NCBI RefSeq assembly: GCF_054482595.1
Contig: NZ_CM137008.1
DNA: 64,000 bases
Direction: 5' to 3' (one strand)
Shown: positions 16,129-51,248 of the stretch, one piece after another
Numbering within the stretch: the first letter of the stretch is position 1
Layout of the letters: each line of letters begins with the position of its first letter
The notes under the pieces: model-generated
Seen by the model: the letters and a program-made list of their open reading frames with translations, nothing else
Told to the model about the DNA's origin: nothing
Databases searched by the model: none
Position numbers and translations under genes: made by a program

Positions 16129-16223
16129 TCTCCCTTTTTCAGATCTCATCCATACTGGGTAGTGGCGAATAAATCTCATTTGCCTCACCTGCTATGCAGA
16201 ACATCATCCGAAAAGGAGGAACT

Positions 16224-37442: not shown

Positions 37443-37856
37443 TCAATATCCTAACGCTGGTCTTTTGCCTGTATTAACTGATTTAGCTGGTTTGCTACAT
37501 ATTAATGCCTTCAGATTTTCCCTTTCCTTGTCTGTGATACTGTCACAAACCCTACTAGCCCATTCTACTTCACTCTTCTCCAGGCATTCTATTTTCTTAT
37601 TGCTCATTGTTCTAATGTTTGGTGTTGCATCTCCATTTAATAACATCCATGTTTCATTTTTCTTCATAAAACATCTTCCATTATGTTCAAAGATATTAGG
37701 TGTGAATATATTATCAGAATCCCATGTTACGACTTGCTCGAGGGCTATATTATCTTGATAGTCCATGCCAGCATTATAATAATCACAAGATATAATTATC
37801 ATGGAAATAATTATCATGGAAATAATTATCACTAATATCTTCCCAAGCATTTCCAT
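37443..37856 (-). CDS. Putative Rhs immunity protein; predicted inner-membrane lipoprotein (137 aa)
   Basis: Start ATG directly abuts the rhs stop (…GTAAAGTAAATGGAAATG); signal peptide with lipobox IISC and Asp at +2; AT-rich like the Rhs C-terminal domain. Confidence 0.7.
   Translation of the reverse strand: MEMLGKILVIIISMIIISMIIISCDYYNAGMDYQDNIALEQVVTWDSDNIFTPNIFEHNGRCFMKKNETWMLLNGDATPNIRTMSNKKIECLEKSEVEWASRVCDSITDKERENLKALICSKPAKSVNTGKRPALGY
37792..37832. repeat. 15-bp tandem repeat (2.7 copies of ataattatcatggaa) inside the putative immunity gene signal peptide
   Basis: Seen directly; encodes the repeated SMIII segment of the hydrophobic core. Confidence 0.9.
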
Positions 37857-40800
37857 TTACTTTACCTCTTGAAATTCAAATGGGAATCCAGTGAAAGGAC
37901 CTTTAGGCATAATATATCTTTGATATCCATAAAGCTCACCGAGCACTTGTAGGCTTATAGGCGCATTTGTATTCATAGAGGGGTTGTTAAACCCGCACGC
38001 CTCAAAAATCATGTTCGTTCGGCTAAAACAATTATTTAAAACAGGAAGAGGCCCGAGGTTAATAGTTTTTAGTTTTTTATTAAGGTCTATTGCCTTATTC
38101 ATCATACATTGTTCTTCTTCATCTGTTGTATCTATTATCCAAATCCAGGTATCTCTGCGGGATTGTATCTTTTTAAAATAATCAGAGACAGAGGCTCCCA
38201 TCTCATCCCCAGTTCCCGAACTCATTAATCCATATCGATTTGCCGCCGCAGCATGCCCAAAAGGATTATCAGGAACGGGGCCGTTACCTATTATCATAGT
38301 ACTAAGCCCTAATGGATCAACGTGTTGCACTGGATTCAGCGGATATTGGTACAGATTCCATCCCCCCTTCAGCCCTATCGGGTCCTGAGTGATATACCGC
38401 CCCTGCAACGGATCGTAGTACCGGTTCCGGTTGTAGTACAGCCCCGACTCCTTATCATACTGCTGCCCCGGCAGCCGGTACGGCTGGTGCAGGTGATGCG
38501 GGTTCTCCTCATTAAGCTGGTTGCCCCATTCATCATACTCCGCGCTCCACGCCGTATTGCCGTCTTCACTGATAAGCGCCAGCGGCAGGCCCCGGTGGTC
38601 GCAGTGGTAAAGATGAACTTTTCTCGCCGGTGTGTATTCCGGCTCCATCTGTCTGGCCAGTTGCTCCACCGTCAGCCCGCACTGCGCAAGCCACGCCCGG
38701 CTTTCACTGCTCACGCGGTCTGCCCGGATTTCTTCCTCCAGTCTGTCCAGCAGCCGCACCAGTTCAGCCGGAAATACCACGCCGTGCCCGTCCTCGCTCC
38801 CTTCCTGCTGCATCTTCTCCGCCAGGCTGCGGCGCTGCGCTTTCTCCCGCTCGCCGTTCTCTGTCTCGCCCCGGATGAGCGGCGTGAAGCTTCCCGGCTC
38901 GTATACCGTCTGGATACGTGTGGTGTCAGTCTGCACCGTCGTCAGCCTGTCGCCGTCCCACCCGTACCATGTCTCCTCCGGTTTACGCGACAGCGACATC
39001 CATCCCGTCAGGTCACGCCCGCGACGCCACACCCGTTTCGCCATTCGCCGTCCCAGCGGGTCGTAGAGGTAGCAGCTCTCGACCAGTGGCTCGCCATGCT
39101 GTATCCGCGTGTAGAACACCAGGCGGTGCTGGCTGTCGTAGTGATAGTGGTGGGTGCGCTCGTCGTGCATCCGGATAACCCCTTCCGGGATACGGTCCGT
39201 CTTCTCCGCCAGCCTGCCGTATTCATCGTAGCGGTAGACATAGTGCGCATCTTCCGCGATGCGGTTATCCGGCCACGCCGTGAAGGTGCTGTCCGGGTGC
39301 AGTTCCGGGTCCGGCAGCCGGTTTCCTGCCGGGTCCGTCGCATACGGGATATCGATATCCAGGTTCGCTGCCGTGGTGTGGACGCCCGTCAGCCTTCCCG
39401 TGCCGCTGTAACGGTACTCCCGGCTCTCCTGCGGGCCGCTGATGCGGATTAGCTGTCCGTTGTCGTTCCAGTCGTAGTCATGGTCAAGCTGCGGAAGGTT
39501 CAGGTGCCTGCTCCGGAGCTGGCCGCTGGTATTCCAGGCGGTGGCAAGTTCATATGCCTCCCCGCCGAAGCTGCGGGCCGTCTCACGGTGCAGCCGGTCC
39601 CGCGTGTACTCGACCAGCGGCGTTCCGCCCAGCTTCATCCCCGCAAGATAACCGCTGCCATACGTCAGCCACTCCACCCGCGGCAGGCTGTCCGGCGTGA
39701 CGCGGTTTGCCAGACCCTGTTCGTTGTATGCGTGCTCTGTCTCATGCTGCCACAGCAGTTCCCCCGTCTCCGGGTTATGCACCGTCTGGCGTTCGCCGGC
39801 CAGGCGACCCTTATCATCATAACCGTAATGCACCGCCACCTGATGGCCTTCGCTCAGGTGGCTGATGTCTGTCAGCCAGCCGTGGCCGTCATACTGCCAC
39901 TGCTCTGCCGGTTCACCGTTCACCGTGCGGTGAGTGATACGGTCCGATTCGTCGTAGTGCCAGAGGGTGACAAGTCCCTCATCCTCACTCTGTGTGAGTT
40001 TTCCGGTCAGGTCATAATGATAACGCTGCGTCCGCCCGTCAAAGCCGCCCTGCTGTACCAGGCGGTCCAGCGCATCGTAGCTGAAGTCGCTGTGACTGCC
40101 GTTCTCGTTGGTCAGGCTGATGACACGTCCGGCAGCATCGTACTCCATACTGCGCGTCAGCCCGCCCTGCGTGGTGCTGACCGCCTTTCCCCACGCATCG
40201 TACTGTGTCTCGCTCCGGTTGCCGTCCGGGGTGATAACGGCAGTCAGGTCGCCTGCGGCGTTGTATTCATACCGCGTTTCACGGCCCTGTGCGTCTTTCA
40301 CCGAGGTTAACCGGCCACGGTTGTCATAGCGGCGGTAAAGGCTGATGCCTTCCTCGCGGTGGACCGCCGTCATCTGGCCGAAGCGGTCGTATTCATAGCG
40401 GGTCTGGTAGCCCGAGCAGTCGGTGAACGCCAGCAACTGACCGTAGCGGCTCCACGTCATCTGCCGGGTGCTGCCCGTCGCATCTGTTGTCGTGGCCGGT
40501 AATTCACTGTGCGCATCATCATAGCGGTAGCGTACTGTCTCCCCGCTGCGCGATGTCTCCGTTACCAGCCTGTCCAGTTCATCATATGCCCGGCGGCTCT
40601 CCAGCCCGTCCGGGGACACCACCGCCGTCAGCTGGTTCCCGTCGTTATAGTAAAATTTCGTCTCCCGCCCGTCCGGTGTGGTGATGTCCGTGATATCGCC
40701 GGACACCACATTCAGACCGTACTCTGTCCGCCGTCCCGCCGCGTCCGTCTGCGCCGTGAGCCTTCCTGCCGCGTCATACCCGCTGTGCGTGACGCTGCCA

Positions 40801-42062
40801 TCCGCCAGTTCTTTTTTCACCACCCGTTTCAGCCCGCCTTCACCTTCTGTATGCAGCACCTCACGCCGGTTCAGGCTGTCGGTGACGGTGATGCGGTCCT
40901 GCTCATACTGGTAGCGGTAACTCAGGCCTGCCGGGTTAAGCTGCTCCACCACCCGCCCGGTATCGTCGTAGCGGTAGCGCATCTCCGGCCTTCCCGCATA
41001 ACGGTGCCCCACCATCCGGCCCGGGTGCTGCGCGTCATACGTGAAAGCGCGCACCTGTGTCCCGCTGCGGTCATATACCGCCAGCAGTTCACCGGCTTCC
41101 GTATACGTGTACCGCGCCAGTGGCGCTCCGGGCAGGCTCTCCGGGTATGCCGGGTCGTGCATCAGCCACACCGCCAAAAGGCGGATACCCCTGTCGGGGC
41201 CGTATTCGGTACCGGGCAGTGTGTCGGGGAACGCTGAGGCTGAGAGAGGGCGGGAACGGTCAGAAGAAGATAGCGAAGAGGTGCGGGCCTCTTCCGCACG
41301 CTGCGCCTGCGTGGTCAGCACCAGACGGAACTCCCGCCCGGCACCGTCCGTCACGCCGGTGATTTCCCCGGCCAGGTCACCGGCGGCCTCACGCCGGTAC
41401 GTCAGCGTCCGCCCGAAGCGGTCCGCCATCCCGGTAAGCACCCGGTACGGCGGCAGCGGCGCTGGCAGTACGTCCTCAGCACCCGGCACCCGCTCAGACC
41501 ACCCCAGTATCCACCACGGCCCCTGTGCGCTGTTGGTCGCCAGGTAAAGATGCGGGCTTAACCGGATATCCGGCGGCAGCGACGCCCACAGCCGTGCCAG
41601 CGTATGGCCGTCCGGCTGCGTTGCCTTACCGCCACGCACCAGCCACAGGGACTCGCTGCGGCTGTACACCGCCTCACCCGGCAGCAGCGGCTCAAAGTGA
41701 ATGCTCCGTCCGCCGTTGTCGTTGAGTACCAGTGCATCATCGCGTAGCTGTAAGCGGATATCAGAAGGCGCTTTCCAGCCGGGGCCAAAAATCCCCACCG
41801 GTGCAGGCGTCTTCGTCCGGTAGCTGCTGTAGGTGCGGGAGAGAATGAACGGCAGCGGGCCGGGCAGCGCAAGGTCCGTCTCGCCGGGCAGCACCTTCGC
41901 CCCCAGTAGCGGGTTTACCGGGTTAGAATAGGTGATACCGCCCGGACACACCGAGCACGCCACACCGGTCGGCGCGCCTATCAGTACCCCCGCTGACCCC
42001 TGGACTATCGGACCGCCGTACTGGGTCATATCTCCCTGGCGTGCCGCTGGTTTTCCGCTCAT
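37857..42062 (-). CDS. rhs: PAAR-domain Rhs protein (1401 aa): N-terminal PAAR-like region, YD/RHS repeat core, DPLGL boundary, 148-aa C-terminal domain of unknown function (putative toxin)
   Basis: N-terminus [11 protein letters not shown]…; numerous YD repeats; core ends …[32 protein letters not shown] at 38304-38318; downstream CT (37860-38303) is AT-rich. Confidence 0.9.
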
Positions 42063-42129
42063 GATTCAAATTCCTTCTTCTGTTTATTTTTAATGCTGGT
42101 TTGTTACTGAATACCGAACAGGTACGGGA

Positions 42130-44238
42130 TCAGTACTCTCTCATATCCGGCGTATCCTGCTTTTCATCAGGTGTCTTCGGTGGGGATTTCGAGGCTGCAC
42201 AGTTCAAGTTAATCAACAGTGAGTCACCATTAACCTGCTCCTTACCCTGCAAATGAATTTTTGTGCCGTTGAGAAAAATTTGTCCGTCCTTCGTCAGCAC
42301 CAGCCTTGCCTTACCACAGCAGAGCTCCAGATGCTCCCCGGCAGAGTAAATCGCTGTCTGTCCGGTATCATCCTTCTTCGTTTTACCCACGGTGAAGGTG
42401 ACGTTATTTCCGACTTTAACGTCATATCCTTTCCCCACAAGCAGCGATTTATTTACCCCCACCTGCGAGGACTGCATCAGCGCCACCGAGGTGTTCATAA
42501 TGCCACCTACCGTCGTCTGATACGCCACGCCCACGGTCAGCGCACGAACAAGTCCAATCGTTTCCACCTGAACAGAACCCACTTTAATTATCTGGTTACT
42601 GCCCACCGTCTCTATCTGGTTAACACCCACCGTCTGTATCTGATTGTTGGTAACCGCAATCATCTGATTGTTGCCAATGGTTTCAGCATGGTTGTTTATC
42701 ACATCCGTGGTGCGGTTATTCAGCACCTCGGTGTTCATGTTCTTCTGCGCGTGGATGTAGACCTGTTCTTTCCCTGTCGCATCGTCAAACTTCAGTTCAT
42801 TAAACCCGCTGCCCTTATAGGTTTTCGAACGAATGGTCATCTGCGTCTTCGTCCCCGGCAGGCTGCCGGGGGTGCGGTTTTCCTGGTGGTAGGTACGCCC
42901 CATAATAATCGGCTGGTCCGGATCGCCGTTGAGGAAGTCCACAATCACCTCCTGACCCACACGCGGTATCGCCAGGTTGCCAAAGCCGGTGCCTGCCCAC
43001 GCCTGTGCCACACGGATCCAGCATGAACTGTCCTGGTTTGACGGGTTATAGCGGTCCCAGTTAAATTTCACCCGCACGCGGCCATGTTCATCACAGAAGA
43101 TTTCCTCGCCTGCCGGTCCCGTCACGACGGCGCTCTGCGGGCCGTCCACCATCGGTTTCAGCAACGGCTGTGGCCGCCATGTCCGGTCTGCCGGGATTAC
43201 CGCAAAGTGGTTATTCAGCGTGGTACCTGAACCACTGCGTCCCGGCACCGCCTGCGGCTGCTCGCCGTGCAGTTCACTTGCCACCACCTGCCATTCCCGG
43301 TTCAGGTTCGCCTGCGGATGCCCCGTCAGCGCAATTCGCCGTCCCGGCCATATCTCCGGAGAACGGCTTGTTCCGCGCGCCACTTCTGCGTTGTTTCGCC
43401 AGCCATCCATCTGCCAGCGGGCAAAGTTCTGCCCGTGGGCACCCTTGAAACGTCCGGGGTAGTCATACACTTCATACTGTGTGCGCTGGTAATCCTGGTA
43501 CTGGCCTTCCTGATCAAAACGCCCTGCCCAGCCGGGTCGTTTAAAGGTGTAGTCTTTGGTCACCACGGAAGAAGGGCGGATTTGTGCGCTGTAGCGAAAC
43601 TGGCTGATGCATAGGGTGCTCACCTCGGTACGGGTGTTCGGGTTCCAGGGGATCTCAAAGGACTCCGGCAGATAACGCACGGTGTCGCACAGGACCAGGC
43701 TCTGGTCGATACTTTTTTGCGCGTGCTCCTCATAAAAGAAGATGCCTTCCTCCGCCGCCATCCGGCACAGGAAATCGTAATCGGTTTCGCCGTACTGGAC
43801 ACAAAACTCACGGGAAGGATGTGGCTCGCTGAACAGCGGGCTCCACTCGGTAACCCCGTTTTCCTGCAATATCGTGCCGAGGATGCTTTCGATGTCCTCA
43901 TTCTGGAAGATACGGAAGTTCTGGCGCAGCCCTGTGCGCCACAGCGGTGGGCACACCTTCATGCTGTACAGCATCTGGTTTTTGTCGTTCTCCCCCAGTT
44001 CAAACCAGGTCACCATACCTTTCACCCGGCGCTGTACGTCATCGCCCTGCCATACCGTCAGGTAGGCCATTTTGTCCAGCACCTGCGCAAATTCAAGGGA
44101 AAGAAACTGCTGACTGACCAGAGAAAGGTCGAGGGAAAAAAGTGAAGAGAGTGACTGGGAGAGGTGAAAGGAAACCACCGCAAAAGCATCCGGTGGCAGG
44201 CCGTCCACTTCAAGTGTGAAACGTAATCCGGTTGACAT
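42130..44238 (-). CDS. vgrG: Type VI secretion spike protein VgrG
   Basis: Start placed at MSTGLRFTLEVDGLP within ORF 42130-44274; VgrG gp27/gp5-like sequence; 67 bp upstream of rhs. Confidence 0.85.
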   Translation of the reverse strand: MSTGLRFTLEVDGLPPDAFAVVSFHLSQSLSSLFSLDLSLVSQQFLSLEFAQVLDKMAYLTVWQGDDVQRRVKGMVTWFELGENDKNQMLYSMKVCPPLWRTGLRQNFRIFQNEDIESILGTILQENGVTEWSPLFSEPHPSREFCVQYGETDYDFLCRMAAEEGIFFYEEHAQKSIDQSLVLCDTVRYLPESFEIPWNPNTRTEVSTLCISQFRYSAQIRPSSVVTKDYTFKRPGWAGRFDQEGQYQDYQRTQYEVYDYPGRFKGAHGQNFARWQMDGWRNNAEVARGTSRSPEIWPGRRIALTGHPQANLNREWQVVASELHGEQPQAVPGRSGSGTTLNNHFAVIPADRTWRPQPLLKPMVDGPQSAVVTGPAGEEIFCDEHGRVRVKFNWDRYNPSNQDSSCWIRVAQAWAGTGFGNLAIPRVGQEVIVDFLNGDPDQPIIMGRTYHQENRTPGSLPGTKTQMTIRSKTYKGSGFNELKFDDATGKEQVYIHAQKNMNTEVLNNRTTDVINNHAETIGNNQMIAVTNNQIQTVGVNQIETVGSNQIIKVGSVQVETIGLVRALTVGVAYQTTVGGIMNTSVALMQSSQVGVNKSLLVGKGYDVKVGNNVTFTVGKTKKDDTGQTAIYSAGEHLELCCGKARLVLTKDGQIFLNGTKIHLQGKEQVNGDSLLINLNCAASKSPPKTPDEKQDTPDMREY

Positions 44239-45346
44239 AGCAACCTCCGTGAAAATGAATAATAATCCGCACATATTGCATGTACAACATGTCGGGCGGA
44301 TGAGATAAGCGAGTCGACATCTGGCGTTACCGGGGAATATCAGAAAAATGTCATGGTTATGTGATGATTTAGTCTGGGATTTTACTTCAGAGAAACGGGT
44401 GTCTGTTTAGTCAACAAAATAATCACAAACGCAACGGATGGGTTCTCGACGTTATTCACGACAGGCTCGTACATTACAGCGAGTAATAAAAAACCCGATA
44501 TGCAAAGTCAAACCAATATTCATAATGTCTTTTTATTCACAACAATAAATAATTTAATAACAATCATTGAAATGAATGATGATTTGTATAAGGAATATAC
44601 GCTACCGCCCCACCCTGATAACATGATCTGCACATTGCCATCTTAACGTCGTTAAACACTGGCTTAATAGTGGATATTTCAAATTAGGAATTTATTAAAT
44701 TCACCTGATGAATATCATAAGCAAATAGCATAGAAAATAATGACAACTCCCCCGAGGGGACCATTTCCAAAGCACTGCACCACCACCTGGTGCCCGGATG
44801 ATCTTGCTTCAGTGGTAAGAGTACCTGATTCATTGTTCCCAAAATGGTGTTTTCCCCTGCCCCTCCAATAATGTGCAGCTCTCACGTGATAATCTATTGA
44901 TTAGGTTATATTAAGAATCAATATTTAAAATACATCCATTTTCTTGAATAAATCAACATGTTTATTAATCAATTGCTGTTTTAGCTCTGACTCATCAAGC
45001 TCTCCATATTTGTCCTACAGATAATTGCGAATAAATACAGAGAACGCCATTTATCCTTTTAGCATACCTGCCGGATATTTTTATTTGTATTAATATTAAT
45101 TGCATCTCCAACTCCGAGCATATCCATCATTAAAAAAATTTTGAGATTATAGAATACCTGTGATAACAAGTGAAACATCTGCACAATGTGAATAGTTAGT
45201 TTCTTTTCAGAGGAAATGAAATAGACACGCTGAATGAAAGGGAGAGTGATATAAATTAAAAAACATAACGTGAATTTAATTAATTACGCCCATCATTGTG
45301 GATAAAGTTACTGAATAATAAATAACATAATCTTCTGGTATCCCAC

Positions 45347-45964: not shown

Positions 45965-46230
45965 ATGCCCCTCACAATCTTTTAAAGATTAAGTGTAGGA
46001 CAGTACACAGGTTAACCAGCAAAAGGATTTGTCATTTTTTCGTCAGTTGTATTAATCCCCTTCAGGATTGTAAGGGGATGTTTTGCATCGTTTATCGATA
46101 ACGGGTAGGATGCTGCGCCGATAGTTTTATACCCATAAAGAATAATGGTGATAACTATCATCGCCAGGATGAATAAACATTGTTCATGGCAACTTATATG
46201 ACTTTTTCATTAAAGCAATCAGGGAGAGCA

Positions 46231-47842: not shown

Positions 47843-48904
47843 TTACAGCGCAATACGAATCACATCGTCTGGCTGGGTAGCTTCCTGCTGTTTAGTGGAT
47901 TTTTGTTTCACACTGACATACAGCGTTTTGCCATCGGCAGACAGCGCCAGGCTGTTTGGATGAGTCGGCGTATCGAACGTTTTCACCACTTTATAGCTTT
48001 TCGCGTCAATCACACTGACTTTACCTGCCTGACGATGCGTTACGTAGGCTTCATTACGCGCTGAGTTAAACAGTACAGCCAGTGATTCCGGTGCCGCAAC
48101 CTTCGCCAGAATATTGCCATTACGGGTATCGACCACTAACACTTCTGCGGCTTTAGAATCGGTGATAAATGCACGCTGCCTGGCGGTATCAAGGCTAATG
48201 TTGATAAAGAAGTGCTCTTTGCCGTCATCCAGCAGCTTTTTACGGCTGAGGATTTTATTGTCGGCGGTGTCGATGGTAATCAATTCGCCGTCAGCGTTAG
48301 TGGTGTAAAGACGTTTGCCTTTGCTATCCAGCGCCAGACCGGTACTCATTTTACCGGTGTTCTGGATGGCGGTTTTCAGTTTGATATTCTCGCCATCAAC
48401 GACCCAAATCACGCTCTCTTTACCAATACCACTGATGTAAACGGTGTTCGTGGCATCATCAGCTACCAGCTCACGCGGTTGCAGCGGGCGCACCTCTTCC
48501 GTGCGCTTACGATCATCCAGCACCAGACGGCCTTTCACTTCGCCCGTTTTGGCATCTATCGCCGTGACCGCGCTGTTTACGGTGTTACCAAACCACAACG
48601 TCTGAGTCGTGTTATTGATGGTGGCACCAAACGGCTTGAGATCGTTATGGATCGCCTGCGTCACTTCCAGAGTGACCGGATCAAGACGATAAACCACGCC
48701 ACCTTTATCCAGTTTGCGGCTTTGCGAAGTGGCGAGCCACAGCGCGTTTTCTTGCTGGCTATAAGCCATTTCGTAGGCACCTTTACCTACCGCTTTACGC
48801 AGCATTTCTTCTGCGGCCTGCGTACTGAATGATGAAGCAACAAGCAATGAACCTAACAGTAATGAACCACGCAGGCGCAATGAAAACAGATGACGTAAAT
48901 GCAT
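47843..48904 (-). CDS. yncE: PQQ-like beta-propeller protein YncE (signal peptide)
   Basis: 353-aa ORF with N-terminal signal sequence. Confidence 0.85.
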   Translation of the reverse strand: MHLRHLFSLRLRGSLLLGSLLVASSFSTQAAEEMLRKAVGKGAYEMAYSQQENALWLATSQSRKLDKGGVVYRLDPVTLEVTQAIHNDLKPFGATINNTTQTLWFGNTVNSAVTAIDAKTGEVKGRLVLDDRKRTEEVRPLQPRELVADDATNTVYISGIGKESVIWVVDGENIKLKTAIQNTGKMSTGLALDSKGKRLYTTNADGELITIDTADNKILSRKKLLDDGKEHFFINISLDTARQRAFITDSKAAEVLVVDTRNGNILAKVAAPESLAVLFNSARNEAYVTHRQAGKVSVIDAKSYKVVKTFDTPTHPNSLALSADGKTLYVSVKQKSTKQQEATQPDDVIRIAL

Positions 48905-48985
48905 GACGACTCCCTTTGATGAACCGATATTTTTGCTGCTTCACAATGCTTCGCTAAGCGTAATCATCGTTACGCTCTTGTTATA

Positions 48986-49008
48986 AATGGGAATGGTAAT
49001 CATTATTT
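48986..49008. promoter_or_regulatory. Candidate Fur box in the yncE-yncD divergent region
   Basis: aatgggaatggtaatcattattt; the core tggtaatcattatt matches the Fur consensus tgataatcattatc at 12 of 14 positions. Confidence 0.5.
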
Positions 49009-49145
49009 TCTCAAATGTGGAGCATTTCTTGCCGTTACGACTACAATTTTCTCAATTACTTAACGTATTGTGCCGTTTCATTTTCCATAAATTTACAATT
49101 TCATTACCATGACGGCGTTTTCCCATTCTTAACCTGGCTTTTTTC

Positions 49146-51248
49146 ATGAAGATTTTTTCCGTCCGACAGACCGTTTTGCCCGCACTGCTTGTCCTTTCCC
49201 CCGTTGTTTTTGCCGCTGATGAACAGACCATGATTGTCAGTGCCGCGCCGCAGGTGGTTTCAGAACTGGATACCCCTGCAGCAGTAAGCGTGGTGGATGG
49301 CGAGGAGATGCGCCTGGCAACACCGCGCATTAACTTGTCCGAATCACTGACCGGCGTGCCTGGTTTGCAGGTACAAAACCGGCAGAACTATGCGCAAGAT
49401 TTACAGCTGTCGATTCGCGGATTTGGCTCCCGTTCCACTTACGGAATTCGCGGTATTCGCCTGTATGTGGACGGTATTCCCGCCACCATGCCCGACGGGC
49501 AAGGGCAAACATCCAACATCGATTTAAGCAGTGTGCAAAATGTGGAAGTGCTGCGTGGCCCCTTCTCTGCCCTGTATGGCAACGCGTCTGGCGGTGTAAT
49601 GAATGTCACCACCCAGACCGGACAACAGCCACCAACCATTGAAGCCAGTAGTTACTACGGCAGTTTTGGCAGCTGGCGCTATGGGCTGAAAGCAACGGGC
49701 GCAACGGGAGACGGCACACAGCCCGGCGATGTCGATTACACCGTCTCAACCACGCGTTTTACGACCCACGGCTATCGTGACCATAGTGGCGCACAGAAAA
49801 ATTTAGCCAATGCCAAACTGGGCGTACGCATTGATGAAGCCAGCAAATTAAGCCTGATTTTCAATAGTGTGGATATCAAAGCAGATGACCCTGGTGGGCT
49901 AACCAAAGCAGAATGGAAGGCGAATCCACAACAAGCGCCTCGTGCAGAACAGTACGACACGCGAAAAACCATCAAGCAAACTCAGGCTGGGTTGCGCTAT
50001 GAACGTAGCCTGAGTTCGCGGGATGATATGAGTGTGATGATGTATGCCGGAGAGCGAGAAACGACCCAGTATCAGTCAATACCCATGGCACCACAACTTA
50101 ACCCGTCACATGCGGGCGGCGTGATTACCCTGCAACGCCATTACCAGGGAATAGACAGCCGCTGGACACACCGTGGTGAACTGGGCGTTCCGGTCACGTT
50201 CACTACCGGCCTGAACTACGAAAACATGAGTGAAAACCGCAAGGGCTACAATAACTTCCGCCTGAATAGCGGCATGCCGGAGTACGGGCAAAAAGGTGAG
50301 TTGCGTCGCGACGAACGCAATCTGATGTGGAACATCGATCCCTATTTACAGACGCAGTGGCAGCTGAGCGAAAAACTGTCGCTGGATGCTGGCGTGCGCT
50401 ACAGCTCCGTGTGGTTTGATTCCAACGACCATTACGTTACTCCGGGTAACGGCGATGACAGCGGTGATGCCAGTTATCACAAATGGCTACCTGCCGGATC
50501 GCTAAAATATGCAATGACCGATGCCTGGAATATCTATCTGGCAGCCGGGCGTGGTTTTGAAACGCCGACGGTTAATGAGCTGTCTTATCGTGCTGATGGG
50601 CAAAGCGGTATGAACTTTGGTTTAAAACCATCCACCAACGATACAATTGAGATCGGCAGTAAAACGCGTATTGGTGATGGGCTGCTTAGTCTCGCATTGT
50701 TCCAGACCGACACCGATGATGAAATTGTTGTCGATAGCAGTAGCGGTGGGCGTACGACTTACAAAAATGCCGGAAAGACCCGTCGTCAAGGCGTTGAACT
50801 GGCATGGGATCAACGTTTCGCGGGAGATTTTCGCGTAAACGCGTCCTGGACCTGGCTTGATGCGACCTATCGCAGCAATGTTTGCAACGAACAGGATTGT
50901 AACGGTAATCGGATGCCAGGGATCGCCCGTAATATGGGCTTTGCGTCGATAGGTTATGTACCGGAAGATGGTTGGTATGCAGGCACGGAAGCGCGTTATA
51001 TGGGCGATATTATGGCAGATGATGAAAATACGGCAAAAGCGCCGTCTTATACTCTCGTCGGCTTATTCACCGGGTATAAATACAATTACCACAATTTAAC
51101 TGTGGATTTATTTGGTCGTGTCGATAATTTATTCGATAAAGAATACGTTGGTTCTGTCATTGTCAATGAGTCAAACGGGCGATATTACGAACCTGCGCCC
51201 GGACGAAATTATGGTGTCGGCGTGAATATTGCGTTGAGATTTGAGTAA
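49146..51248 (+). CDS. yncD: TonB-dependent outer membrane receptor YncD
   Basis: 700-aa ORF with signal peptide, plug/barrel composition and C-terminal aromatic residue. Confidence 0.9.
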   Translation: MKIFSVRQTVLPALLVLSPVVFAADEQTMIVSAAPQVVSELDTPAAVSVVDGEEMRLATPRINLSESLTGVPGLQVQNRQNYAQDLQLSIRGFGSRSTYGIRGIRLYVDGIPATMPDGQGQTSNIDLSSVQNVEVLRGPFSALYGNASGGVMNVTTQTGQQPPTIEASSYYGSFGSWRYGLKATGATGDGTQPGDVDYTVSTTRFTTHGYRDHSGAQKNLANAKLGVRIDEASKLSLIFNSVDIKADDPGGLTKAEWKANPQQAPRAEQYDTRKTIKQTQAGLRYERSLSSRDDMSVMMYAGERETTQYQSIPMAPQLNPSHAGGVITLQRHYQGIDSRWTHRGELGVPVTFTTGLNYENMSENRKGYNNFRLNSGMPEYGQKGELRRDERNLMWNIDPYLQTQWQLSEKLSLDAGVRYSSVWFDSNDHYVTPGNGDDSGDASYHKWLPAGSLKYAMTDAWNIYLAAGRGFETPTVNELSYRADGQSGMNFGLKPSTNDTIEIGSKTRIGDGLLSLALFQTDTDDEIVVDSSSGGRTTYKNAGKTRRQGVELAWDQRFAGDFRVNASWTWLDATYRSNVCNEQDCNGNRMPGIARNMGFASIGYVPEDGWYAGTEARYMGDIMADDENTAKAPSYTLVGLFTGYKYNYHNLTVDLFGRVDNLFDKEYVGSVIVNESNGRYYEPAPGRNYGVGVNIALRFE

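Follow-up and report, generated by a model that had tools for sequence, protein, structure and literature searches.

Positions 48905-49145 of the 64-kb window (the whole stretch of DNA that was analysed) form an intergenic spacer of 241 bp between two divergently transcribed genes. A first-pass annotation made from the sequence alone had named a beta-propeller gene and a TonB-dependent receptor gene as the neighbors of this spacer, and both assignments are right, the genes being located as follows.

47843-48904, minus strand: yncE, encoding a periplasmic seven-bladed beta-propeller protein (open reading frame, annotation and literature).
49146-51248, plus strand: pqqU (formerly yncD), encoding a TonB-dependent importer of PQQ (annotation and literature).

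These gene coordinates agree with those of E. coli strain RM9872. The window is E. coli DNA. Several strains, of O145, O157:H16 and other types, match a 901-bp query around the site discussed below at 100% identity, and the query region was found in 5,411 of 5,426 complete genomes. The head-to-head layout of yncE and pqqU is retained in most Enterobacteriaceae. As the spacer is identical to that of K-12 MG1655 at 241 of 241 positions, published K-12 results can be transferred to the window.

A Fur box upstream of yncE

The 23-mer aatgggaatggtaatcattattt, located at 48986-49008, had been put forward as a close match to the Fur consensus, and this was confirmed. Its core is a 19-mer that agrees with the Fur consensus GATAATGATAATCATTATC at 15 of 19 positions, making it the best consensus match in the window and the only one with at least 15 of 19 matching positions. 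The site itself carries four mismatches, and a search of the whole window with the consensus and up to three mismatches returned no match. Moving the register by 6 bp (48983-49001) gives a second 19-mer of 13.3 bits with the position weight matrix (PWM) described below, and the two overlapping 19-mers together make up an extended site in which at least three adjacent NATWAT-like hexamers are present (four counted).

48989-49007, plus strand reading: core Fur box GGGAATGGTAATCATTATT, which reads AATAATGATTACCATTCCC toward yncE (15 of 19 consensus positions; 15.86 bits).
48983-49007: extended Fur site of four hexamers, ATAAAT GGGAAT GGTAAT CATTAT, formed by two overlapping 19-mers 6 bp apart.

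A PWM scan had been suggested as a check and was run here. The matrix was derived by iterating from the consensus on 15 MG1655 promoter regions (fepA-fes, fepD-entS, fepB-entC, fhuA, fiu, cirA, tonB, exbB, fecA, fecI, ryhB, fhuE, fhuF-yjjZ, feoA and sufA), which we chose as classical Fur targets, with the yncE box left out of training. With a score of 15.86 bits, the yncE box ranks second in the 64 kb and lies within the range of known boxes, at about the median for real boxes and above 7 of the 15 training boxes when these are scored by leave-one-out (range 9.5-20.9 bits). It is a middling match, with a G-rich left half (GGGAATGG). In dinucleotide shuffles of the 241-bp spacer, an equal or better match arose with P = 0.009 for the PWM and P = 0.001 for the consensus count. 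No further Fur-like match above 8.1 bits is present in the spacer or in the first 180 bp of either gene.

Conservation of the box was assessed in a scan of one genome per species, which covered 80 YncE-encoding loci across the Enterobacteriaceae, with usable upstream sequence in 78 species. A Fur-like 19-mer scoring 14.5-23.3 bits is the top match at 74-88 nt 5' of the yncE ATG in about 73 of the 78 species, and five more species (Kluyvera, Pseudocitrobacter) have a weaker box of 11.7 bits at an unchanged distance from yncE. In three species the box lies only 33-37 nt from yncE because their leader is shorter. Many species carry stronger boxes than that of E. coli, for example GATAATGAGAATAATAATC, with scores reaching 23.3 bits. 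When 27 genera and species are aligned and read toward yncE, TAATGATTA..ATTC.CA is invariant and its flanks are divergent. The match to the consensus, the conservation of the box and its position relative to yncE are thus direct observations of the present analysis.

Published measurements place Fur at this site. A Fur ChIP site has been reported upstream of yncE in MG1655, together with an increase of yncE RNA by RyhB (PMC4676285), and another study counts yncE among the direct Fur targets in CFT073 as well as in MG1655, the sites being conserved (PMC7157518), with the CFT073 Fur ChIP peak being assigned to yncE/yncD_1 (PMC7157518 supplement). ChIP-exo detected Fur peaks at the site in both MG1655 and W3110 (PMC10164565 supplement). 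The MG1655 peak, at 1521238-1521250 in older K-12 coordinates, falls at about 48984-48996, on the box, when converted with an estimated offset of 1,977 bp between K-12 genome versions (PMC10164565 supplement); the gene columns of that MG1655 peak table are displaced by one row and, read with this correction, the peak belongs to yncE. Fur ChIP data, which the first-pass annotation had proposed to consult, show peaks at this place in MG1655, CFT073 and W3110. A Fur box upstream of yncE was also called with a PRODORIC matrix in an ExPEC strain (PMC4145685), and a supplement note to a 2025/26 Reg-Seq preprint, self-described as AI-assisted, states that the Fur box is present and that the RegulonDB annotation is absent.

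The expression data in the literature agree with this occupancy as far as yncE is concerned. The log2 fold change of yncE in fur deletions of eight strains ranges from 3.1 to 8.1 (PMC10164565 supplement), a fur mutant overproduces the YncE protein (PMC5120174), and yncE mRNA rises 16-fold on treatment with dipyridyl, of which about 3-fold was attributed to RyhB (PMC8896160). In addition, yncE has been reported to belong to Fur iModulons. Altered expression in a fur mutant or under iron limitation had been named as a check for both genes; these published values bear it out for yncE, and for yncD they differ between strains (log2 0.12, not significant, in MG1655, but 2.95 in W3110 and 2.02 in 042). 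The literature yielded no footprint of Fur on a yncE fragment.

The 19-25 bp sequence at 48983-49007 is, very probably, the Fur operator of the yncE promoter. Were it instead a chance AT-rich match without function, with the iron regulation of yncE being indirect, one might point to the better PWM match at 16165-16183 (16.0 bits, the top match in the window), which lies within the maeA coding region, and to the mean of 0.42 matches as strong as the yncE box in each whole-window shuffle. Against this, matches of such quality are rare within the spacer itself (P = 0.001-0.009), about 25 genera share an unchanged core at a constant distance from yncE between diverging flanks, several strains gave independent ChIP and ChIP-exo peaks, and fur mutants show strong derepression, leaving a chance match as an explanation that is scarcely credible. 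The Fur site of yncE was already known, and the present result is mainly a correct re-identification of it: yncE belongs to the core of the E. coli Fur regulon, and published ChIP peaks coincide with the site.

The yncE promoter and the question of shared control with pqqU

By convention, pXG10 fusions begin at the 5' end of the mRNA, and we assume that this holds for yncE and take base 48988 as its start. The forward primer of the pXG10-yncE reporter begins at this base (PMC8896160 supplement), which would give a leader of 84 nt. The likely promoter elements were placed relative to this start by alignment and spacing. A block reading CTCCACATT is conserved just upstream of the Fur box in the 27 species aligned, and the hexamer TCCACA within it is followed at a spacing of 17 bp by a -10-like hexamer, TACCAT, which reads TACTAT in most other genera.

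49016-49021, minus strand: putative yncE -35, TCCACA, inside the conserved block and 17 bp from the -10-like hexamer.
48993-48998, minus strand: putative yncE -10, TACCAT, within the Fur box (alignment, spacing to TCCACA and to the presumed start).
48988, minus strand: presumed yncE start (84-nt leader; pXG10-yncE primer).

With the start at 48988, both hexamers sit 2 nt nearer to it than is canonical. Relative to the same start, the 19-mer covers -19 to -1, including the -10-like TACCAT, and the extended site reaches to +6. As the box lies over the likely -10 and start of yncE, a placement typical of repression by occlusion, it would act by blocking the promoter, the exact hexamers and the start being what we infer from the alignment and the reporter primer.

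Several other candidate elements were considered and set aside. The hexamer TATAAC (48985-48980) is AT-rich and is not conserved as a hexamer, and it was kept only as an alternative -10; if it were the true one, the box would lie over the -35 and the spacer of the promoter, and the conclusion of occlusion would be unchanged. TTGAGA (49014-49009) has the wrong spacing to any -10 to serve as the -35, a position for which TCCACA is conserved and fits with its 17-bp spacer. RegulonDB lists just one weak site for yncE, a MarA site at -41.5; a hand search gave only weak marbox matches, there is no Reg-Seq footprint, and the authors of the Reg-Seq preprint did not recover the MarA site. Small open reading frames on the plus strand of the spacer (48987-49112 and 49015-49149) were likewise set aside; the spacer alignment is full of gaps.

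In the pqqU-proximal half of the spacer, the alignment shows an invariant TAnCAT (49105-49110) with TTTTC(C/A) 18 bp upstream. These conserved columns suggest a core promoter for pqqU.

49081-49110, plus strand: candidate pqqU core promoter, TTTTCC (49081-49086), 18 bp, TACCAT (49105-49110), from conserved columns.

This TTTTCC-18-TACCAT arrangement is likely to be the pqqU promoter, which would place the Fur box at about -110 to -130 relative to pqqU.

From the position of the box between the two genes, the first-pass annotation had proposed joint iron-responsive control. That proposal stands for yncE; for pqqU it does not hold in MG1655, and a modest rise is seen in W3110 and 042. If the box were a shared operator of yncE and pqqU, in the manner of fepA-fes, fepD-entS and fepB-entC, the arrangement of the genes would suit it, as they are divergent, 241 bp apart and kept in this arrangement in most Enterobacteriaceae. 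It would also account for the rise of pqqU in fur deletions of W3110 (log2 2.95, p = 2.7e-51) and 042 (log2 2.02; PMC10164565 supplement) and for the assignment of the W3110 ChIP-exo peak to both yncE and pqqU. Yet the change of pqqU in the MG1655 fur deletion is not significant (log2 0.12), the gene belongs to the Fur regulon in just 2 of the 9 strains (PMC10164565 supplement), and two groups report that yncD/pqqU is not Fur- or iron-regulated (PMC7193533; bioRxiv 10.1101/2022.06.07.495086). The geometry argues in the same direction. A bidirectional operator would have to overlap or abut both promoters, and the box does neither with respect to the putative pqqU promoter: 139-157 bp separate it from the pqqU ATG, and it is upstream of that promoter by about 110-130 bp, with no Fur-like site near the promoter. 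The box also survives in eight Citrobacter species without pqqU, which retain the -35 block, the hairpin and the RyhB block 5' of yncE as well.

A more distal pqqU start would bring the box into reach, and a sigma-70-like TTCACA-16-AATCAT on the pqqU strand (48940-48967) would leave the box downstream of such a start, where Fur could form a roadblock; but promoter-like matches of this kind are no more frequent than chance predicts (1 found against 1.1 expected), and in genera other than Escherichia its -10 is poor. According to a review, yncD is recovered along with yncE in RyhB MAPS, for which overlapping UTRs may be the reason. Weighing these points, we regard a shared operator as unlikely. 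pqqU is not clearly under control of the Fur box, which is probably not shared between the two genes, and we conclude that the box is the yncE operator and that any effect on pqqU is secondary and strain-dependent. More speculatively, the strain-specific effect on pqqU could be explained by strong divergent transcription from the derepressed yncE promoter or by a distal pqqU start whose transcripts run across the Fur box. The function of the neighbor fits this reading of the box as a yncE operator, in that YncD/PqqU imports PQQ and does not support iron uptake (Grinter and Lithgow; Hantke and Friz). Adjacency to a Fur box is accordingly not the same as a shared iron function; here, the TonB-dependent neighbor imports PQQ and is not reliably iron-regulated.

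A stem-loop and a RyhB-complementary block in the yncE leader

A perfect inverted repeat close to the Fur box had been noted at about 48953-48975 and proposed as another operator. The repeat exists, with different limits: its two 7-nt arms are AGCGTAA (48957-48963) and TTACGCT (48970-48976), separated by 6 nt. Among shuffles, 9% contain a perfect 7-bp repeat around a short loop, so that the repeat is, on its own, not beyond chance (P about 0.09). The case that the hairpin is real rests on covariation across species and not on the repeat in a single sequence.

48957-48976, minus strand: yncE leader stem-loop AGCGUAA-CGAUGA-UUACGCU, about +13 to +32 (exact arms, covariation).

For the hairpin analysis, 72 distinct yncE leaders were aligned. 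From these 72 species, RNAalifold predicts a single helix, which corresponds to the seven pairs of this repeat. The two arms can pair in 95.0% of cells in the alignment, compared with 73.0% in column shuffles, none of the 500 being as high as the alignment itself, and with 29-68% when the 3' partners are slid along the alignment, a control that preserves the relatedness of the sequences; the leaders being related, the shuffle counts are not to be read as probabilities. Double-sided changes were found in 119 cells against 38.8 expected, and all seven of the seven pairs covary. From genus to genus the arms change together, reading GCGTAA/TTACGC in Escherichia, GCAAAG/CTTTGC in Enterobacter, GCGGTG/CGCCGC in Kluyvera and GGCCGGG/CCCTGCC in Phytobacter. 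Read on the yncE-sense strand, the alignment holds 62 G-U cells against 5 A-C cells, and as G-U pairs are tolerated on this strand, only this strand needs the pairing. Both the covariation and its strand are observed directly in these alignments. The loop motif A-N-G-A is conserved. A search of 48700-49350 against Rfam 15 (E <= 1) gave no match.

These observations indicate that the inverted repeat is an RNA stem-loop in the yncE 5' leader and not an operator. The contrary idea, in which a second, dimeric transcription factor would bind AGCGTAA-N6-TTACGCT as a DNA operator and regulate yncE and/or pqqU, draws on the geometry of the site, since a perfect 7-bp palindrome with a 6-bp center suits a dimeric regulator, on its position a short distance 3' of the yncE start, from which a repressor can work, and on the conserved loop motif A-N-G-A. 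However, the half-site varies by genus (GCGTAA, GCAAAG, GCGGTG, GCCGGG) while complementarity is kept at 95%, so that the pairing is conserved and the arms are not, and the excess of G-U over A-C cells (62 against 5) reflects a constraint on one strand that is not expected from recognition of duplex DNA. With the repeat itself being within chance in the single sequence (P about 0.09), the second operator proposed in the first-pass annotation finds no footing in the alignment, and we consider a DNA operator at this position very unlikely. The covarying leader hairpin seems to be undescribed and to be a small addition to what is known of yncE.

Two further roles for the hairpin region were rejected. 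As an intrinsic terminator, the stem would have only 3 G-C pairs and no real T-run, the tail being CTTGTTATAA on the plus strand and TAGCGAAGC on the yncE strand; a terminator scan of the plus strand flags the hairpin, within what chance would give (1 found, 0.4 expected). An upstream open reading frame of 8 codons starting at an ATG in the loop (48967-48941) was discarded, as this ATG is AAG, AGG or ACG in several species.

Immediately 3' of the hairpin, the leader carries a second conserved block, which reads GGAAGCGAUGU... in most genera and is complementary to the seed of the small RNA RyhB.

48935-48953, minus strand: leader block CGAAGCAUUGUGAAGCAGC, complementary to the RyhB seed (about RyhB nt 42-57).

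The complementarity is a plain feature of the leader. For duplex predictions, the single-stranded core of RyhB was used, full-length folding having given an unrealistic end-to-end duplex. The predicted duplex reaches -23.1 kcal/mol, compared with -14.8 +/- 3.1 kcal/mol for shuffled leaders (P = 0.013; accessibility ignored), and the identical alignment position was chosen in 57 of 72 species. The conserved complementary block is in keeping with publications in which RyhB activates yncE: a yncE-lacZ translational fusion responds positively to RyhB (PMC4666370), and yncE is listed as a RyhB-activated target (PMC4666370, PMC8896160). In a CopraRNA/IntaRNA analysis, RyhB and yncE were given about -5 kcal/mol and rank 834 (PMC7154689). 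Once accessibility is counted, the predicted pairing is not energetically compelling, and the exact pairing proposed here should be read as putative.

Hairpin and RyhB block are absent together in three species, whose leader is about 47 nt shorter. It is possible, though we hold this only tentatively, that the stem-loop (48957-48976) and the RyhB block (48935-48953) form one conserved post-transcriptional module that sets the boost by RyhB, perhaps with Hfq or RNase E. The role of the hairpin in such a module, be it in mRNA stability, in Hfq positioning or in RNase E access, is conjectural. A hairpin beside a likely RyhB site offers a concrete starting point for the mechanism by which RyhB activates yncE.

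A model for yncE and its relation to known systems

Taken with the published data, the features of the spacer suggest the following course of regulation. When iron is plentiful, Fe2+-Fur dimers would occupy the four-hexamer array, which would cover the promoter spacer, the putative -10 (TACCAT, 48998-48993) and the presumed start (about 48988), and RNA polymerase would be excluded. When iron is scarce, Fur would depart and yncE would be transcribed into an mRNA with a predicted 84-nt leader that would carry the stem-loop (about +13 to +32) and then the RyhB-complementary stretch. RyhB, itself a Fur-repressed small RNA, is described in the publications cited above as raising yncE mRNA and translation further. 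Iron limitation would in this way act twice on yncE, as Fur repression is lost and RyhB activation is gained. A separate promoter, about 130 bp away, most likely serves pqqU, and Fur would not occlude it directly.

The transcriptional part of this model resembles what is described for classical Fur boxes such as those of fhuF, ryhB, fecI, cirA, fiu and sufA. The yncE site is likewise a 19-bp near-palindrome of NATWAT hexamers with a score within their range, and it shares with them, according to the literature, occupancy in vivo and derepression in fur mutants. If the putative -10 and the presumed start are right, it would also overlap both of these, as the classical boxes do. The E. coli copy differs in being of medium strength, with a G-rich left half. 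In contrast to the genes classically controlled by Fur, the regulated product, YncE, is not known to take part in iron uptake.

The spacers of the enterobactin cluster (fepA-fes, fepD-entS, fepB-entC) are similar in layout, with divergent genes, a short AT-rich spacer, a Fur box and a TonB-dependent outer-membrane receptor as one partner. In these spacers, iron and Fur repress the transcription units on either side, and the boxes extend over each of the two promoters. Unlike them, only yncE responds consistently at the present locus, pqqU being flat in MG1655; moreover, the yncE box is far from the likely pqqU promoter, and pqqU imports PQQ and no siderophore.

For the post-transcriptional part, the closest parallels are genes under both Fur and positive RyhB control (cirA; shiA). 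As in these, Fur represses yncE and RyhB raises its expression via the 5' leader, and the conserved block of the yncE leader is complementary to the RyhB seed. The yncE case departs from them in two respects, namely that the pairing energy is weak with accessibility included, and that the yncE hairpin excludes the ribosome-binding site, for which reason an anti-antisense opening of the shiA type is not obvious. The hairpin can also be compared with the stabilizing stem-loops of enterobacterial mRNAs, of the ompA-leader type, with which it shares its short, 5'-proximal form, its place in the mRNA of an exported protein and its compensatory changes. It differs from them in its conserved A-N-G-A loop, in its lack of an Rfam match and in beginning about 12 nt from the presumed 5' end. 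A distance of about 12 nt exceeds the range usually regarded as effective for shielding the 5' end.

Finally, YncE is a vaccine and diagnostic antigen (E. coli, Salmonella; PMC5120174), and the timing of its expression is therefore of some practical value.

Leader variation among yncE loci

The leader of yncE is not of uniform length among the fetched Enterobacteriaceae loci, which represent one genome per species. In Pseudescherichia vulneris, Escherichia sp. ESNIH1 and Enterobacteriaceae bacterium UBA7338 (L042, L050 and L052), the leader is shorter by ~47 nt, leaving 33-37 nt between the Fur box and the yncE ATG. The two short leaders that were aligned (L042 and L050) have neither the hairpin nor the RyhB-complementary block, which suggests that this pair of elements comes and goes as a single module.

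Eight Citrobacter species (L021, L022, L024, L025, L029, L031, L033 and L037), in which pqqU is wholly absent from the fetched locus, keep the Fur box, the CTCCAC block, the hairpin and the RyhB-complementary block. Direct inspection of four of these loci showed that unrelated sequence begins ~140-150 bp upstream of yncE.

In E. coli, the ATG in the hairpin loop opens an 8-codon frame, MITLSEAL plus a stop (48941-48967, minus strand), with the stop falling within the RyhB-complementary block. This ATG is replaced by AAG, AGG or ACG in several species, and the frame was therefore rejected as a conserved feature. The A-N-G-A motif of the loop is conserved.

The pqqU-proximal half of the spacer

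A second, separate conserved block occupies the pqqU-proximal half of the spacer (49059-49131, plus strand) and contains the following elements.

Elements of the conserved block 49059-49131
49105-49110, plus strand: TAnCAT, invariant
49092-49097, plus strand: TTTACA
49081-49085, plus strand: TTTTC
within 49059-49131, plus strand: TTAAC...GTTAA

A palindrome, AACATGT...ACATGTT, is present in this block in most other genera, and E. coli lacks the palindrome together with ~20 nt. The block may comprise the pqqU promoter and an operator for a putative regulator.

A second Fur peak in the published ChIP-exo data for MG1655 falls within the 5' portion of the yncD/pqqU gene and is labelled there as having no associated expression change (PMC10164565 supplement). 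Conversion of the K-12 coordinates places this peak at approximately 49254-49290, where no Fur-like sequence was found, the best match being one of 8.1 bits at 49226-49244.

Other Fur-like matches and a region that differs from K-12

The top match to the Fur matrix in the whole window, GCAAATGAGATTTATTCGC (16.0 bits; 16165-16183, minus strand), lies inside the maeA coding region and is probably a chance occurrence, as shuffled sequence yields 0.42 matches of this strength per window. Two copies of TATCATGGAAATAAT, each Fur box-like (13.6 bits), form an exact 15-bp tandem duplication at 37797-37830, close to the 3' end of yddE. A further Fur-like 19-mer, AATAATGGTGATAACTATC (46141-46159; 14/19 on both strands, 12.8 bits), is located 72-90 nt upstream of ansP, a gene that in published tables is 2.6-fold down in a fur deletion of MG1655 and unchanged in one of W3110.

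Between pptA and yncG (39934-44807), this strain has part of an ISAs1 transposase gene, followed in the annotation by small hypothetical and peptidase genes and by VgrG and PAAR genes of type VI secretion in truncated form, whereas in K-12 yncG is adjoined by yncH and the rhsE pseudogene.
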